64,000 nt of DNA from Hadesarchaea archaeon (GCA_030601675.1 JAUWBN010000003.1:2255-66254); one strand, 5' to 3'. Positions 54,449-58,443 are shown, counted from the stretch's first letter. Notes: generated from the letters alone by a model not told the origin. Translations and numbers: made by a program.

Positions 54449-55234
54449 CTATCGCAGAACGATTTTATATTTGGGCGTTATCTTCAATTCCTTTCTCATC
54501 GGGCTAGCATCAGGGTTTATCGATTTGGCGACCTGGATGTGATATTTGGTCAACTTCTCCAACTTGGTGTTCACATATGCTACATTTGGGAAGATGCTCA
54601 CTACTCTATTCAACAGCGTTTCCGGCACGGCTTCACGGTTGATCGATGTTACGCCCGTTGCGCCTCTCATCTGAAGCCAAGACATCAGGGGCTCGATTAG
54701 ATCGCTGACCCCGCGCTCCCCGTAATAACGCGAGAGATGAGCTAGGTCGCTTATGGAAGTCAGGCGCCAGAATATCGGCTTACCCCACGTTTCTAGGTCC
54801 CCTAACAGCTTTACCATCCGCTCATAAATCTGTCCCGGCAGGAGTGAGAGATCTATCTGGGTTTCACAGTCCAGATTAGACTTGTACTCAGGCGGCGTCC
54901 AGAAATTAACAGCGAGGAGCCCCCCAATCTTGCCCGTTTTATCAAATTTTTTGTAGAGATCGGGCATGAGTGTTCGATACCTTTTGAGGGAGAGGCCCCA
55001 AGGCGAGCGGGTGGTCATGATGAAAGTTGGGTACCCACGGGCAGCGATGTTAAACGACGTAATCAAAACAGTTGAAGCGACGATGCCCTCCGCCTCTGGA
55101 TCCGAGACGAAAAGCCACGGGTAACCGGGCTGAAACCCTCCCCCAATAAACTTGTTGAGCGACCTAAAACCACTTTTAATAGGCAGGTTTGATTGCAGCC
55201 CACCATTCCTTAAATAAATGCTAGGTCCCGGCAC
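54449..55234 (-). CDS. Degenerate KaiC/RecA-superfamily paralogue lacking Walker A
   Basis: 261 aa. IKSGFRSLNKFIGGGFQPGYPWLFVSDPEAEG aligns with IKTGVPGFDKLLVHGIPRGANILISGGPGTGKT of the upstream ATPase, but the P-loop is replaced. Confidence 0.6.
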   Translation of the reverse strand: MPGPSIYLRNGGLQSNLPIKSGFRSLNKFIGGGFQPGYPWLFVSDPEAEGIVASTVLITSFNIAARGYPTFIMTTRSPWGLSLKRYRTLMPDLYKKFDKTGKIGGLLAVNFWTPPEYKSNLDCETQIDLSLLPGQIYERMVKLLGDLETWGKPIFWRLTSISDLAHLSRYYGERGVSDLIEPLMSWLQMRGATGVTSINREAVPETLLNRVVSIFPNVAYVNTKLEKLTKYHIQVAKSINPDASPMRKELKITPKYKIVLR

Positions 55235-55250
55235 GATTCACCACGCTCAT

Positions 55251-57656
55251 TTAGCTTTTTTTCCCCTTTATCTTCTTGACTTTCGGCTGTAGCTCCCGTT
55301 CTTTACTCCTGAGTTCCTCGAGCCGCGTGCCATACTTTTTAATTAATTCATTATAAGTTTCTCTCGTCAGGGTGCCTTCCGTGTAATACCCCCTGGCCGC
55401 CTCTTTTTTGAGCTTGGGGATTTCCTGAATTTCCCTCCGTATTTCGGCAAGATTTCGAATGAGCCCCTTTTCAAGCATGTGTTTTCGGATGAAGAACACG
55501 GGGACGGCTATCGCTACCACGATGATCGATAGGATTGCCCACCAGTATTGGGAGAGGATGGGCGGGATAGCGGTTGGGGTGTATACCGTCACCTCGAACG
55601 TTCTAGTTCCTTCGGTTTTCCCCGCCGCATCCGTTGAGTAGTATTCGACGGTGTGCTTGCCATCGGTCGAGATTACGAAGGTGTTGCCAGTTTTCCACTC
55701 GCCGCCATTGACGCGATACTTCGTAGAGCTTACCCCTGAGGTTGCATCCGTAGCGGTAAGCGTGACCACCACGGAGTTCTTGTAGCCTTCCGCCCTCAAA
55801 TCTCCAGATAAATCCTTCTGCGTGTTCGGGGGGGTTTGATCAAGGATTATCGAGCCCACCTTCGTTTGGCTGGTGTAACCGGCGTTATCCTTCACCCTGA
55901 CATACACACTTTTAGAGCCATCGTCGCCCGGTAGTTCAAATTCTATCGGGGATTCGAAGTCTTCCCAATCGCCCCAAACTACTCCATCGCTCGAGAATGA
56001 CATCATGTTCGCGTACTGCGCGTCGATGGTCAATTGGACGCTGTTGTCGCTCGTATACGCAGCCCCCGCCTCGATTGCAATGCTCTTGACTTTCGGAGCG
56101 GTCAGCTTGGCGGTGAAGCTCCAAGTTGATGACCAATCTCCCGATCCAGCGGCGTTTGTTCCCCTAACCCTCCAGTAATAGAGAGTCCCATCTAAAAGGC
56201 TCGTGGGCGAAGCCACAGACGACTCTGTGGCACTCCTTGTGAAAACTTTATTTGTAAAATTGTTGTCCGTGGCTACCTCTACCGTGTAGGACTCGGCTCC
56301 TGCGACATCTGACCAGTCGAACGTTGGGGTGAGGTTATCGGTCGTCCCATTCTCCGGCCGCACCAATGAAGGGGCTGTTGGTGGCGCCACTATCGTTACC
56401 GTGATGTCACCCATCCGTGTTAAACCACCATCTGTGCCCGTGACCCCATAGGTAAAGGTCCCAGCGCTCGCGGTGGAGGTCGTTGTAAAGGTTAGGGTGC
56501 TGTTATCAGTTGGAGTGACCGATGATGGACTAAAACTTGCGCTGATCCCCGTTGGTACCGTTCCCGCCCAATCCCCGCTCAACGATACAGTTTGAGTCAC
56601 GCCGGAAACGAGAGTTACCGTAATCGTTGAGATGGCTGAATCACCCCTCATCAACGTTACGTTGTCCGGTGACGCGCTCACCGAGAAGTCAAATGCTGGT
56701 GCCACCGGCGCTATCTCTAGGGACCACGTCGAAGACCAATCGCTCTGGTTGTTGTTATTGTCCACAGCACGAACATGCCAGGAGTAGTTGTCGTTTGGCA
56801 GCTTCGTGGCCGAGGTATATGAGGAGGTGCTCAAGCCGGTGACGTTCTCCTCGGGCGATGAGAAGTCTGAGTCGTTATCGACCTGGATCCAGTAGGTTAT
56901 GATATCTCCCTCGGGATCTGTCGAGGTCTGCCACTGGAAGGTTGGGGTGTTGTCGCTGGTGGATGAACCATCGGAAGGCGAGGACAGCGTCGGAACGCTC
57001 GGCGCTAGATTGGTGGTGACCTCAACCCAGACATAGTCGAAGGATACGGCATCAAATCCTCCACCATCGTTGTTTGTGAACTCGATGTCGAGAGTGGAAA
57101 TCTTGGCCAATGTGTCCACGCCCTGGGCGTAGAGGTCATAGCTACAGACTTGATCCTCCTGCCCATCGGCTGGGACTATGTCCGTACTTGTCAAGGACCC
57201 ACCATCCAAGGCCCACTTAATTGAGTTCGTGCCCTCGTATCCAGCTTCAACCGAGTACTGAACCTTTAGTGCCGCCGCGGTTACCGTCCCGCTCATGCCC
57301 GAGGTGTCGAAGTTATCAATGAACATCACAACACTTTTGTCAACCGTGTACCAGCCATCCCCGGTCGTGACTGCAGAGGGCGAAGCGTCCGATGCATCGT
57401 CCGCTTGAATGTCAGCCAAAAGGTCGCCCGTGTCATCAGATGACCCCTTTGCGCTGGGCGTCGTGTTCCCGGTCGGTGCGGAAACAAGAGCAGGGGTCAT
57501 GCCAAAAATTATCAAAAGGAACAGCCCGGCCAGTAGAGGCGAAAGCAACTTTAACGAAAGCCTCCCCTTTTCAGCCCGTCCAATCAACCAACCCGATGAT
57601 TTAGAGTACATGAACATAGTAGCCTTTTTACTCCTCGATCCCGTAAAGGTGCTCAC
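55251..57656 (-). CDS. Membrane-anchored surface protein with FN3/Ig-like repeats and a cytoplasmic coiled-coil tail
   Basis: 801-aa ORF; ATG 57617 is a likely start. It has an N-terminal hydrophobic signal/anchor and repeated TPTFxW...Y.W.VRA.D..G..S.WS FN3-like modules. A TM helix (WWAILSIIVVAIAVPVFFI) is followed by a roughly 95-aa K/E/R-rich tail. Confidence 0.7.
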   Translation of the reverse strand: MSTFTGSRSKKATMFMYSKSSGWLIGRAEKGRLSLKLLSPLLAGLFLLIIFGMTPALVSAPTGNTTPSAKGSSDDTGDLLADIQADDASDASPSAVTTGDGWYTVDKSVVMFIDNFDTSGMSGTVTAAALKVQYSVEAGYEGTNSIKWALDGGSLTSTDIVPADGQEDQVCSYDLYAQGVDTLAKISTLDIEFTNNDGGGFDAVSFDYVWVEVTTNLAPSVPTLSSPSDGSSTSDNTPTFQWQTSTDPEGDIITYWIQVDNDSDFSSPEENVTGLSTSSYTSATKLPNDNYSWHVRAVDNNNNQSDWSSTWSLEIAPVAPAFDFSVSASPDNVTLMRGDSAISTITVTLVSGVTQTVSLSGDWAGTVPTGISASFSPSSVTPTDNSTLTFTTTSTASAGTFTYGVTGTDGGLTRMGDITVTIVAPPTAPSLVRPENGTTDNLTPTFDWSDVAGAESYTVEVATDNNFTNKVFTRSATESSVASPTSLLDGTLYYWRVRGTNAAGSGDWSSTWSFTAKLTAPKVKSIAIEAGAAYTSDNSVQLTIDAQYANMMSFSSDGVVWGDWEDFESPIEFELPGDDGSKSVYVRVKDNAGYTSQTKVGSIILDQTPPNTQKDLSGDLRAEGYKNSVVVTLTATDATSGVSSTKYRVNGGEWKTGNTFVISTDGKHTVEYYSTDAAGKTEGTRTFEVTVYTPTAIPPILSQYWWAILSIIVVAIAVPVFFIRKHMLEKGLIRNLAEIRREIQEIPKLKKEAARGYYTEGTLTRETYNELIKKYGTRLEELRSKERELQPKVKKIKGKKS

Positions 57657-58443
57657 GGGGCAGGACCTCTAGGCCCCCTTCCCGTGATATGTTCATGGGC
57701 ACAATTTTGTTCGAGTGGTCTGCCCCACGCAGCTTCAGGATTTCGATGGCCCTCATCCTTATCCCCCGAAGTTTGAAATTATACAGGACAAAGGCCCCAT
57801 CGGCCAGAAATTCCTCCACTCCTGTTTTCGAGAGAACTTTTGGGGCTTCCACGGATTCGGATATCAAGAAAGTTGTCACCCTAGCCTTATCAAAAAATCT
57901 GAACAGTTGTTCTATGTAAACCCTATAACTCTCAGGTTTTCCCGTGAATGCCGACTCTAGGGCGGAGATGGAGTCCAGCACGATTACTTGTGGATTAAGG
58001 CCCGCGGGTATCAGCCCCTGAATCTCTTTTATTTCGATCGGCAATGTGCCCGCAGCCTCCTCGAGCAATGCCTCGACGGATTTTGCTGTTTTGAACGGAT
58101 CCATCCGTCTGACAGTGAATGAACCAGCTTTCTTCACCGCTTCAACATCCCAACCGAACATTCGCATATGTGCTTCAAGCCGCTCCGGTAGCTCTTCGAA
58201 CGTGACATAAAGACAGGTGAGGCCGCGACGTGCTAGGTTATAAAGCGTTTGTAGACAGAAAATAGTCTTGCCCGTGCCCGGCCCACCCGAGATGAGGATG
58301 TTGGCGCCCCGCGGTATCCCATGTACAAGCAATTTGTCGAACCCGGGGACCCCTGTTTTTATCCACTCGGGCACCGCGTGTTTTTTGCCTTTATTTGGTT
58401 TTTTCCGGCTTTTTTTCCTTTTTCGATGGTTAGTCATGCCCAT
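57628..58443 (-). CDS. Single-domain KaiC-like (RecA-superfamily) ATPase with a poly-basic N-terminal tail
   Basis: 271 aa with Walker A GGPGTGKT and Walker B-like VIVLDSISALE. The N-terminus has 11 Lys/Arg within residues 7-21. Confidence 0.8.
   Translation of the reverse strand: MGMTNHRKRKKSRKKPNKGKKHAVPEWIKTGVPGFDKLLVHGIPRGANILISGGPGTGKTIFCLQTLYNLARRGLTCLYVTFEELPERLEAHMRMFGWDVEAVKKAGSFTVRRMDPFKTAKSVEALLEEAAGTLPIEIKEIQGLIPAGLNPQVIVLDSISALESAFTGKPESYRVYIEQLFRFFDKARVTTFLISESVEAPKVLSKTGVEEFLADGAFVLYNFKLRGIRMRAIEILKLRGADHSNKIVPMNISREGGLEVLPREHLYGIEE

Follow-up and report, generated by a model that had tools for sequence, protein, structure and literature searches.

What might a KaiC-type ATPase do beside the gene for a large surface protein and that for a second KaiC-fold protein whose active site has been lost? 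The question is raised by a cluster of three genes, here called A, B and C, in a 64,000-nucleotide (nt) stretch of DNA from a Hadesarchaea archaeon (GCA_030601675.1 JAUWBN010000003.1:2255-66254), referred to below as the window. The host belongs to the Hadarchaeota, and lives in the deep subsurface without having been cultivated. Few predicted regulators are as abundant in archaea as the KaiC-family ATPases, and most KaiC-like ATPases have no evident second component (PMC4858521). An earlier note on this DNA, made from the sequence alone, had suggested that an active and an inactive KaiC assemble on the cytoplasmic tail of an extracellular receptor or adhesin, and the analysis reported here partly supports that interpretation. 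With moderate confidence, we propose that A, B and C make up a membrane-tethered KaiC-type signalling module encoded in one operon. Judged by gene order and predicted structures, the module most likely relays signals from the cell surface. Its conserved core appears to be A together with a surface protein carrying a conserved transmembrane helix and tail, not the triad of A, B and C.

Three products of one operon

The cluster had been described as three tightly spaced, co-directional genes, and the list of open reading frames (ORFs) of the window agrees: A, B and C all lie on the minus strand (Table 1), with 16 nt between B and C. A and B overlap by 29 nt if B starts at its GTG; the ATG at 57617, which has GAGGAG ahead of it and leaves a 10-nt gap after the stop of A, is the more likely start. 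C begins with a GTG preceded by a Shine-Dalgarno-like GGTGA. This is the spacing of an operon, and of the type seen in translational coupling. A conserved AT-rich element was found only upstream of A; its counterpart ahead of the A gene of the syntenic contig L004 reads AAAATCATAAATTGAGG (related contigs and loci are given here by L numbers). The element is a candidate archaeal TATA element and presumably acts as the promoter of the operon.

A is a single-domain KaiC-type ATPase, as had been proposed. It matches the Pfam KaiC model (PF06745) with an E value of 8e-55 and 186.2 bits (cut-off 26.6), residues 28-264 covering profile positions 1-230 of 231, and it has more than 1124 homologues at E<=1e-40, several of which are labelled Hadarchaeales. 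The Walker A sequence GGPGTGKT, the catalytic Glu pair, the Walker B sequence and the second KLRG are invariant across the alignment of A orthologues, and A is predicted to be catalytically competent. Circadian KaiC proper is recognized by a double KaiC domain of about 500 amino acids (aa), an equivalog score and kaiB/kaiA partners. A is not such a protein: it has one domain in 271 aa, scores 131.6 bits with NF006799 (cut-off 408) and 89 bits with TIGR02655 (cut-off 546), and has no kaiB-like gene among its neighbours in the window. Nor is it ArlH/FlaH, scoring 38.1 bits with the NF052589 ArlH model against a cut-off of 215. Its first 24 residues contain 11 Lys or Arg and no Asp or Glu. The earlier note had called this tail unusual, and while the polybasic character stands, the rarity does not. 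At least six Lys or Arg are present in the N-terminal extension of 58 of the 78 scorable orthologues (median 13 per 35 aa), and a polybasic N terminus is a hallmark of the subfamily, not a peculiarity of the window protein. In L004 the orthologue of A has one in-frame TAG (L004 5101-5103) where the window has a Gln codon (IEIKEV-stop-GLIP versus IEIKEIQGLIP). A nonsense mutation, a polymorphism or an error in the assembly could each explain it; downstream of it, B and C are intact.

C, searched as the window protein, has no match in Pfam (E<=1) or NCBIfam. An AlphaFold2 (AF2) model built on the family alignment reached a predicted local distance difference test score (pLDDT) of 86.6 and a predicted TM-score (pTM) of 0.86, and the top 50 Foldseek matches to this model in the PDB were all KaiC CI/CII or archaeal single-domain KaiC-like proteins, with E values of 7e-11 to 4e-9 and a target-normalised TM-score of up to 0.78. 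They include 2zts, 2dr3 and 2w0m (PH0186, PH0284 and Sso2452), and the model superposes best on KaiC CI. Model and structure search thus bear out the RecA-type fold that had been presumed for this protein. A search of PDB sequences with the family profile returned only noise, and pairwise BLASTP of A against C gave nothing significant (best E 0.15). Aligned by hhalign, the C family and the A orthologues are colinear over 228 columns, weakly so at E 0.054, in the register proposed earlier with SDPEAEG at the P-loop. Homology of A and C is supported at fold level only, and a recent duplication from A cannot be shown.

Throughout the C family, other residues stand where A has its Walker A, Glu pair, Walker B and Arg finger (Table 1), and C is predicted to be catalytically dead, as the earlier note had held. 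E47, E49, R76, W156, R157, L158, S160, K237 and N240 are invariant in the family, whose alignment has 34 invariant columns. The ratio of nonsynonymous to synonymous substitution rates (dN/dS) is about 0.10 in unsaturated comparisons, and C is under strong purifying selection. From the fold, the conserved motif replacements and this ratio, we therefore take C to be a conserved functional pseudo-ATPase of the KaiC fold. The idea that its acidic DxEAEG pseudo-P-loop docks polybasic tails was dropped, as C is basic overall (isoelectric point, pI, 9.7).

The C family is small: clustering at 90% identity leaves 20 clusters in a set of 5.8 billion proteins, and clustering at 50% leaves six representatives in one of 1.84 billion. 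A profile search of contigs with the C alignment found one locus only, equivalent to L009. None of the 20 family members matches DUF835, MEDS or DUF7504. The best match to a profiled degenerate-KaiC family is to DUF7090, at E 0.0014 in four of the 20 members and below threshold; a local DUF7504-like profile gave E>0.5 with C, and two members match Pfam PAXNEB (Elp4) weakly (E 0.005). By sequence and model, C would represent a new, narrow family of inactivated KaiC (iKaiC) proteins. It has the properties by which these are recognized, namely a KaiC/RecA fold, loss of the motifs and genomic association with an active KaiC: A is adjacent to C or in the same operon in the window, L001, L004, L006, L007 and L014.

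B is a type I surface protein. The N-terminal signal or anchor, the FN3/Ig modules and the single C-terminal transmembrane helix that had been proposed were all found, with two hydrophobic stretches at residues 31-63 and 696-729. The first of these (Kyte-Doolittle peak 2.27) is Sec-type and ends in VSA followed by P; the orthologues have comparable N termini ending ADA/LAP, and the signal peptide is presumably cleaved. The ectodomain is acidic (pI 4.05), has 10 N-glycosylation sequons and matches Pfam Ig_Rha78A_N (44 bits, cut-off 27.4), Big_13 (33.5 bits, cut-off 27) and fn3 (26.5 bits, cut-off 25) as well as the NCBIfam OmpL47-type barrel (residues 625-691, 70.7 bits versus a cut-off of 40). 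While the modules are real, the TPTFxW...YxWxVR units said to recur are two only (237/291 and 443/493). The transmembrane helix has a hydropathy peak of 2.63, and its WWA motif (W25, W26 and A27 of the tail alignment) is invariant. The cytoplasmic tail is charged, helical and polybasic at its end, as described, and has about 78 residues where about 95 had been counted. In an AF2 model of residues 690-801 (four-sequence alignment, pLDDT 83) the transmembrane helix runs on to residue 760 and is followed by an EGTL turn and a second helix (765-800).

The tail is conserved over five loci whose ectodomains vary. The orthologous ectodomains are MG2/Big_7 in L004, Kelch/WD40-like in L014 and FN3 with OmpL47 only in L006/L007; further modules seen in relatives are CARDB and NPCBM_assoc. 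A profile of the tail matches every B and also the distant loci L019 and L021, and what persists across loci is the WWA helix, the pattern ...EA..Y(F/Y).EG.(I/L)(S/T)R..Y..L...Y..R...L and the polybasic end. Among the matches listed in a protein-database search with the tail alignment were three short fragments, and B itself was not among them. The motif is present twice in tandem after the transmembrane helix of giant surface proteins (1296 aa and >1900 aa; L021 7935-13393 and L019 12140-13017) and once in a second, 499-aa membrane protein, on distant archaeal contigs. Because it occurs both in tandem copies and as a single copy in another protein, the motif seems to act as a small cytoplasmic domain that can be repeated and is missed by Pfam. 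A likeness of the tail to SHOCT was not supported: hmmscan of the isolated transmembrane helix and tail at E<=10 gave no SHOCT model.

Recurrence of the pair and its third partner

Genomic contexts were tabulated with local profiles for C homologues, the tail and A orthologues. The order A-B-C was found in five independent Hadarchaeota contigs, namely the window, L004, L006, L007 and L014 (where A is cut by the contig end), and B-C on contigs that end before A in L002/L003 and L005. The flanks of these loci all differ (Fmd/Fwd genes, CitG, RuBisCO, PAS histidine kinases), and synonymous divergence (dS) between the A-B-C loci ranges from 1.3 substitutions per site up to saturation. Because the flanks differ and synonymous sites are this diverged, we conclude that the order A-B-C has been kept by selection.

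The recurrence of the triad that the earlier note had asked about is thus real in five contigs, while the conserved core is the A-B pair, with C as one of several partners. A gene for a tail-bearing surface protein lies immediately downstream of A in 9 of 12 cases, or 10 of 12 with L019, where a 49-aa RHH gene comes between the two. Seen from the other side, all B-type tail genes whose upstream sequence is readable have A directly upstream (nine cases), apart from that of L019 with its intervening RHH gene. The A genes outside such a pair are those of L001, in which A is convergent with C and there is no B, and L018 (A-DUF7504-histidine kinase-response regulator). In the four loci sampled through A alone, the pair was found in three (L017, L019, L021), and a DUF7504 gene is near in three of the four. 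L021, whose A is only 53% identical, has the order A, a 1296-aa surface protein that has a transmembrane helix and carries the tail motif twice, a 499-aa membrane protein that has such a helix and carries the motif once, DUF7504, and a Ser/Thr kinase.

The position after the pair is interchangeable, being occupied by C, MEDS-PAS or DUF7504, all of them degenerate KaiC domains. In L016 it holds a MEDS-PAS-PAS protein (MEDS E 4.5e-45) and in L013 a 78-aa gene with a DUF7504/rubrerythrin-like protein; a pair of the latter kind (78 aa, 251 aa) directly follows C in L006. DUF7504 genes lie beside A in L012, L017, L018 and L021, and the DUF7504 proteins of these loci have secondary weak matches to the KaiC model. 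L007 and L013 are one metagenome contig, Ga0315312_1001448, which carries two paralogous modules, A-B-C and DUF7504-A'-B'(774 aa)-78 aa-248 aa, the 248-aa protein having a rubrerythrin-like N terminus and a DUF7504-like C terminus. Genes for CheC, a response regulator, Hpt, hemerythrin and RuBisCO lie between or beside the modules (L007/L013, L006).

The signalling role proposed earlier finds support in the related loci and none in the immediate neighbourhood of the window cluster. PAS histidine kinases and a response regulator are encoded in L006; CheC, a response regulator and Hpt in L007 and L012; a response regulator-histidine kinase-response regulator series in L017; a histidine kinase-response regulator pair in L018; and a Ser/Thr kinase in L021. 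The MEDS-PAS protein in the third position adds to this list.

Surroundings of the cluster

The neighbours of the cluster in the window are housekeeping genes: TBP, acetyl-CoA synthetase, a luciferase-like oxidoreductase, endonuclease III, KsgA, aEF-2 and DUF1512. No pilus or archaellum genes were found near the cluster in the window. With these neighbours and the low ArlH score of A, a match to a characterised pilus, archaellum or adhesion operon was looked for and not found. The upstream side (EF-2, KsgA, endonuclease III and a small membrane protein with a polybasic end) is syntenic with L004, and the downstream junction varies among close relatives. The window (63200-63988, beyond EF-2) and L017 (12034-12822) each have a DUF1512 gene no more than a few kb away from the KaiC module, which is probably residual synteny.

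Directly upstream of A is the gene for a 152-aa small membrane protein, which matches nothing in Pfam. It is syntenic in L004, where the product has 114 aa and aligns strongly over about 113 residues, and is absent from L006 and L007. Its start is probably further downstream, because the listed 5' end reaches about 80 nt into the divergent endonuclease III gene (58945-59676). The 3' end of this gene is copied on the far side of the cluster as one of two direct repeats of 61 nt, 90% identical and 4200 nt apart, that bracket A-B-C exactly. On the minus strand the downstream copy reads ...KAMLWKRGLGKLVKRKKKR followed by a stop; similarity between the copies seems to extend into the spacer. No integrase gene lies between the copies, and the syntenic contig L004 does not have the repeat. 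A tandem duplication or recombination in the window lineage probably left it as a scar, and we do not take it as evidence of a mobile element.

The cluster had also been singled out for low GC content, and this did not hold up. A, B and C have 50.6%, 53.3% and 50.1% GC against a mean of 55.6% for the window (standard deviation, SD, 3.8% over 800-nt intervals), and other genes are as low or lower (TBP 46%, acetyl-CoA synthetase 52%). Horizontal transfer as an explanation of the composition was rejected, since all three values lie no more than about 1.5 SD from the mean and L004 has the same upstream synteny.

Table 1. Positions of the cluster and its features, counted from the first nucleotide of the window
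Feature	Coordinates	Strand	Remarks
Direct repeat, copy 1	54368..54428		Non-coding remnant 20 nt downstream of C, copying the 3' end of the 152-aa gene
Gene C	54449..55234	-	Inactivated KaiC-fold protein, 261 aa
C, AKSINP	54512..54529	-	KSIN where A has KLRG
C, FWRLTS	54755..54772	-	LTS where A has Walker B LDS
C, IMTTRS	55004..55021	-	TR where A has the catalytic EE (FEE to TTR)
C, degenerate P-loop	55085..55105	-	SDPEAEG, residues 44-50 (A: GGPGTGKT)
Gene B	55251..57656	-	Type I surface protein, 801 aa from GTG (788 aa from probable ATG 57617)
B, cytoplasmic tail	55254..55487	-	Residues 724-801, ~78 aa; juxtamembrane helix, conserved motif, polybasic end
B, polybasic tail end	55254..55283	-	KVKKIKGKKS
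B, tail motif	55311..55421	-	IPKLKKEAxxxYYxEGTLTRETYNELIKKYxTRLEEL
B, transmembrane helix	55488..55550	-	QYWWAILSIIVVAIAVPVFFI, residues 703-723, WWA motif
B, ectodomain	55551..57479	-	Residues ~60-702; N-terminal domain of unknown type, FN3/Ig, Ig-like, FN3/Ig, OmpL47-type barrel
B, signal peptide/N-terminal hydrophobic segment	57480..57566	-	Residues ~31-59, ...LLAGLFLLIIFGMTPALVSA, followed by PT
Gene A	57628..58443	-	Single-domain KaiC-type ATPase, 271 aa; Pfam PF06745
A, second KLRG	57724..57735	-	Lys/Arg finger motif, residues 237-240
A, Walker B	57970..57987	-	VIVLDS, residues 153-158
A, catalytic Glu pair	58192..58200	-	FEE, residues 82-84
A, Walker A	58264..58287	-	GGPGTGKT, residues 53-60
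A, polybasic N-terminal extension	58372..58443	-	MGMTNHRKRKKSRKKPNKGKKHAV, residues 1-24
AT-rich element	58467..58483	-	AAAATCATAAGTTAAAG, ~25-40 nt upstream of the A start
Gene for small multi-transmembrane protein, 152 aa	58566..59024	-	Directly upstream of A; product ends GKLVKKKRKR
Direct repeat, copy 2	58568..58628		3' end of the 152-aa membrane-protein gene, just upstream of A

Readings of the locus and known systems

In the module that we propose, the ectodomain of B (Ig, FN3 and barrel modules here, MG2 or beta-propeller-like ones in relatives) would be a swappable part that faces the environment, and the conserved tail would recruit or organise the ATPase A. By analogy with other KaiC-family proteins, A may form a ring and autophosphorylate. 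C would then be a non-catalytic partner that enters or caps the ring of A and tunes its ATPase or phosphorylation cycle; alternatively, it may be an adaptor through which the state of A reaches downstream components. If the two share a ring, C would probably reduce or gate the activity of A, because it could offer neither nucleotide binding nor an arginine finger for an adjoining A site. The state of the ectodomain, set by ligand, surface contact or clustering, could in this way be converted into the nucleotide or phosphorylation state of the KaiC protein. In many relatives the module may feed two-component, Che-like or Ser/Thr-kinase components.

Several observations weigh against this proposal. 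The direct contacts between A and B, A and C, and B and C are ones that we infer. The cytoplasmic parts are all basic (N-terminal tail of A, pI 12; C, pI 9.7; tail of B, pI 9.9), which fits membrane or nucleic-acid binding as well as protein-protein docking, and binding of the polybasic segments to the membrane is plausible. Near the cluster in the window there are neither two-component or Che genes nor a DUF7504 gene. Searches with C or the tail supplied most of the loci, whose counts are therefore biased, and the unbiased sample is the four loci reached through A alone. Finally, because C occurs without B in L001 and L008-L011, it is not strictly tied to B. In L009, L010 and L011 (Hadesarchaea metagenome-assembled genome S4B4_HD70) and in L008 it has neither A nor B as a neighbour, and follows a 516-542-aa protein with faint Pfam matches to the metallo-beta-lactamase fold (L009-L011) or a 1117-aa cytosolic protein without a Pfam match (L008). 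This suggests that C may have other partners, or may pair with an A whose gene lies elsewhere.

The alternative that survives best, although we regard it as unlikely, is that the module acts from the inside out or has a structural role. The A/C pair would control the insertion, clustering, display or turnover of an adhesin B or of its envelope structure, in the manner of ArlH with ArlI on ArlX or of the KaiC-family proteins predicted to regulate type IV pili. The strict linkage of A and B and the conserved tail fit such a role, as do ectodomains built from typical adhesin or envelope modules (Ig, FN3, the OmpL47 barrel and MG2, with CARDB and NPCBM_assoc in relatives) and a window locus that has no signalling genes nearby. 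There is also precedent, since KaiC-family ATPases are reported with archaeal type IV pilus and archaellum loci (PMC4858521) and the membrane-anchored scaffold FlaX interacts with FlaI and FlaH (PMC5019145). However, no pilin, ArlI/J, TadC or secretion genes adjoin any locus examined, and the signal peptide of B is Sec-type and not class III. The sensory or adaptor-type domains (MEDS-PAS) of the third position and the neighbouring genes for histidine kinases, response regulators, CheC and Hpt point to signalling instead.

It is improbable, in our view, that the cluster is a recognition or conflict module, in which a shuffled ectodomain would recognise foreign cells, viruses or kin and the KaiC/dead-KaiC pair would be an intracellular switch for defence or self/non-self discrimination. 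Ectodomain content does differ even among close relatives while the tail is kept, the 61-nt direct repeat flanks the cluster, and the downstream junction varies. A weakly matches the PADLOC model mad8 (E 1.7e-6, in the P-loop region only); PADLOC has no match for B or C, which leaves the defence role entertained by the earlier note without support, and the loci contain no toxin, nuclease or immunity-like genes. The cluster is not an island either, as the upstream synteny with L004 extends over EF-2, KsgA, endonuclease III and the small transmembrane protein and the composition is unremarkable. Variable Ig-domain modules have an archaeal precedent in VARTIG, which is, however, described as confined to Thermococcales (PMC8416519).

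We consider it very improbable that A and C are a pair for DNA or RNA transactions, with A as an ATPase of the RadA-paralogue type with a nucleic-acid-binding tail, C as a Rad55/57-like or Elp4-like inactive partner, and B as merely a conserved neighbour or as the membrane anchor of the pair for DNA handling. NCBI calls some orthologues of A 'RAD55 family ATPase', the structural matches of C include the RecA-superfamily proteins Sso2452 (2w0m) and PH0284 (2dr3), and the PAXNEB/Elp4 matches of two C members and the strongly basic N-terminal tail of A, C and tail of B lean the same way. This would leave the strict adjacency of A and B and the conservation of the tail unexplained. The endonuclease III gene 0.5 kb upstream in the window is divergent and part of the conserved housekeeping synteny, and it is signalling genes, not other repair genes, that recur in the loci. 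That three unrelated genes are neighbours by chance, with C a decaying duplicate, deserves hardly any credence: the non-significant BLASTP result for A and C and the lack of a family annotation for C would suit it, but it is already contradicted by an order kept in at least five contigs whose flanks differ and whose dS is saturated, by the dN/dS of about 0.10 and 34 invariant columns of C, and by gene spacing of the translational-coupling type.

Returning to the proposed surface-to-KaiC module, the locus offers a testable input and set of partners, namely a tail-bearing surface protein, a polybasic KaiC subfamily and a dead-KaiC family. If the contacts are real, it would give a handle on how the surface is coupled to signalling in uncultivated subsurface archaea (Hadarchaeota and, apparently, other lineages), and a new pseudo-ATPase family would join the KaiC network. 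If they are not, it is one more KaiC neighbourhood.

Known systems resemble the module in part. VARTIG (PMC8416519) shares with it a large secreted or anchored Ig-domain protein of varying domain content that is followed by small partner genes, and differs in having no KaiC ATPase and no conserved cytoplasmic tail and in being reported from Thermococcales only. For cyanobacterial KaiC, with its CI and CII domains and its output through KaiB, SasA and CikA, the idea that a catalytically different second KaiC domain tunes the first and that adaptors read its state is comparable. There, however, the two domains are joined, whereas A and C are separate single-domain proteins and C has no nucleotide-binding motif at all; there are no kaiA or kaiB genes at the locus, and nothing indicates a timing role. 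Hetero-oligomeric RecA-fold rings with inactive subunits are known from Elp4/5/6, and from Rad55-Rad57 and the Rad51 paralogues, where RecA-fold pseudo-ATPases are also kept as structural or regulatory partners. Elp4/5/6 and Rad55-Rad57 are eukaryotic tRNA-modification or recombination factors without a membrane partner, and their likeness to C is at the level of the fold only.

The closest mechanistic analogue is the motor subcomplex of the archaellum, ArlH (FlaH)-ArlX (FlaX)-ArlI. ArlH is KaiC-like, and its autophosphorylation is cited in PMC10983859. There a single-domain KaiC-like protein acts at the membrane alongside a monotopic partner whose cytoplasmic portion is helical (PMC5019145), as is proposed for A and B, and the FlaX-FlaI-FlaH interaction is a precedent for the proposed signalling module too. 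In contrast to ArlX, B has a large ectodomain and a C-terminal anchor; A falls below the ArlH cut-off, there are no arlI, arlJ or archaellin genes at the locus, and the partner is a dead KaiC instead of a secretion-type ATPase.

The general setting is that of the KaiC-like signalling hubs with iKaiC partners proposed for archaea by Makarova, Galperin and Koonin (2017), cited here through PMC5847659, PMC4858521 and PMC10983859, in which iKaiC domains are fused to signalling proteins or adjoin them. Galperin et al. (PMC5847659) count MEDS and DUF835 among the iKaiC domains. Because the combination of active and inactivated KaiC has been published for archaea, the system is not one that cannot be mapped to anything described, as had been thought. 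It shares with these hubs an active single-domain KaiC encoded with a degenerate KaiC-fold protein, related loci that adjoin histidine kinases, response regulators, CheC, Hpt and PAS, and a third gene that can be MEDS-PAS or DUF7504. In the searchable literature, where Makarova et al. (2017) was covered through citing papers, we found no pairing of the A subfamily with tail-sharing type I surface proteins, no description of the C family, and no case of MEDS or DUF7504 taking the place of C. The differences are that C belongs to none of the profiled degenerate-KaiC families, and that the input proposed here comes from a type I surface protein whose cytoplasmic tail carries a conserved motif. 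We raise tentatively the possibility that the A-B pair is an undescribed, widespread archaeal transmembrane signalling device, in which a single-pass receptor with exchangeable ectodomains docks the polybasic-tailed KaiC through its tail motif and interchangeable dead-KaiC adaptors complete or read the ring. If so, the pair would supply the proposed archaeal KaiC hubs with the extracellular input that they have been missing, in a way functionally like receptor-kinase signalling.

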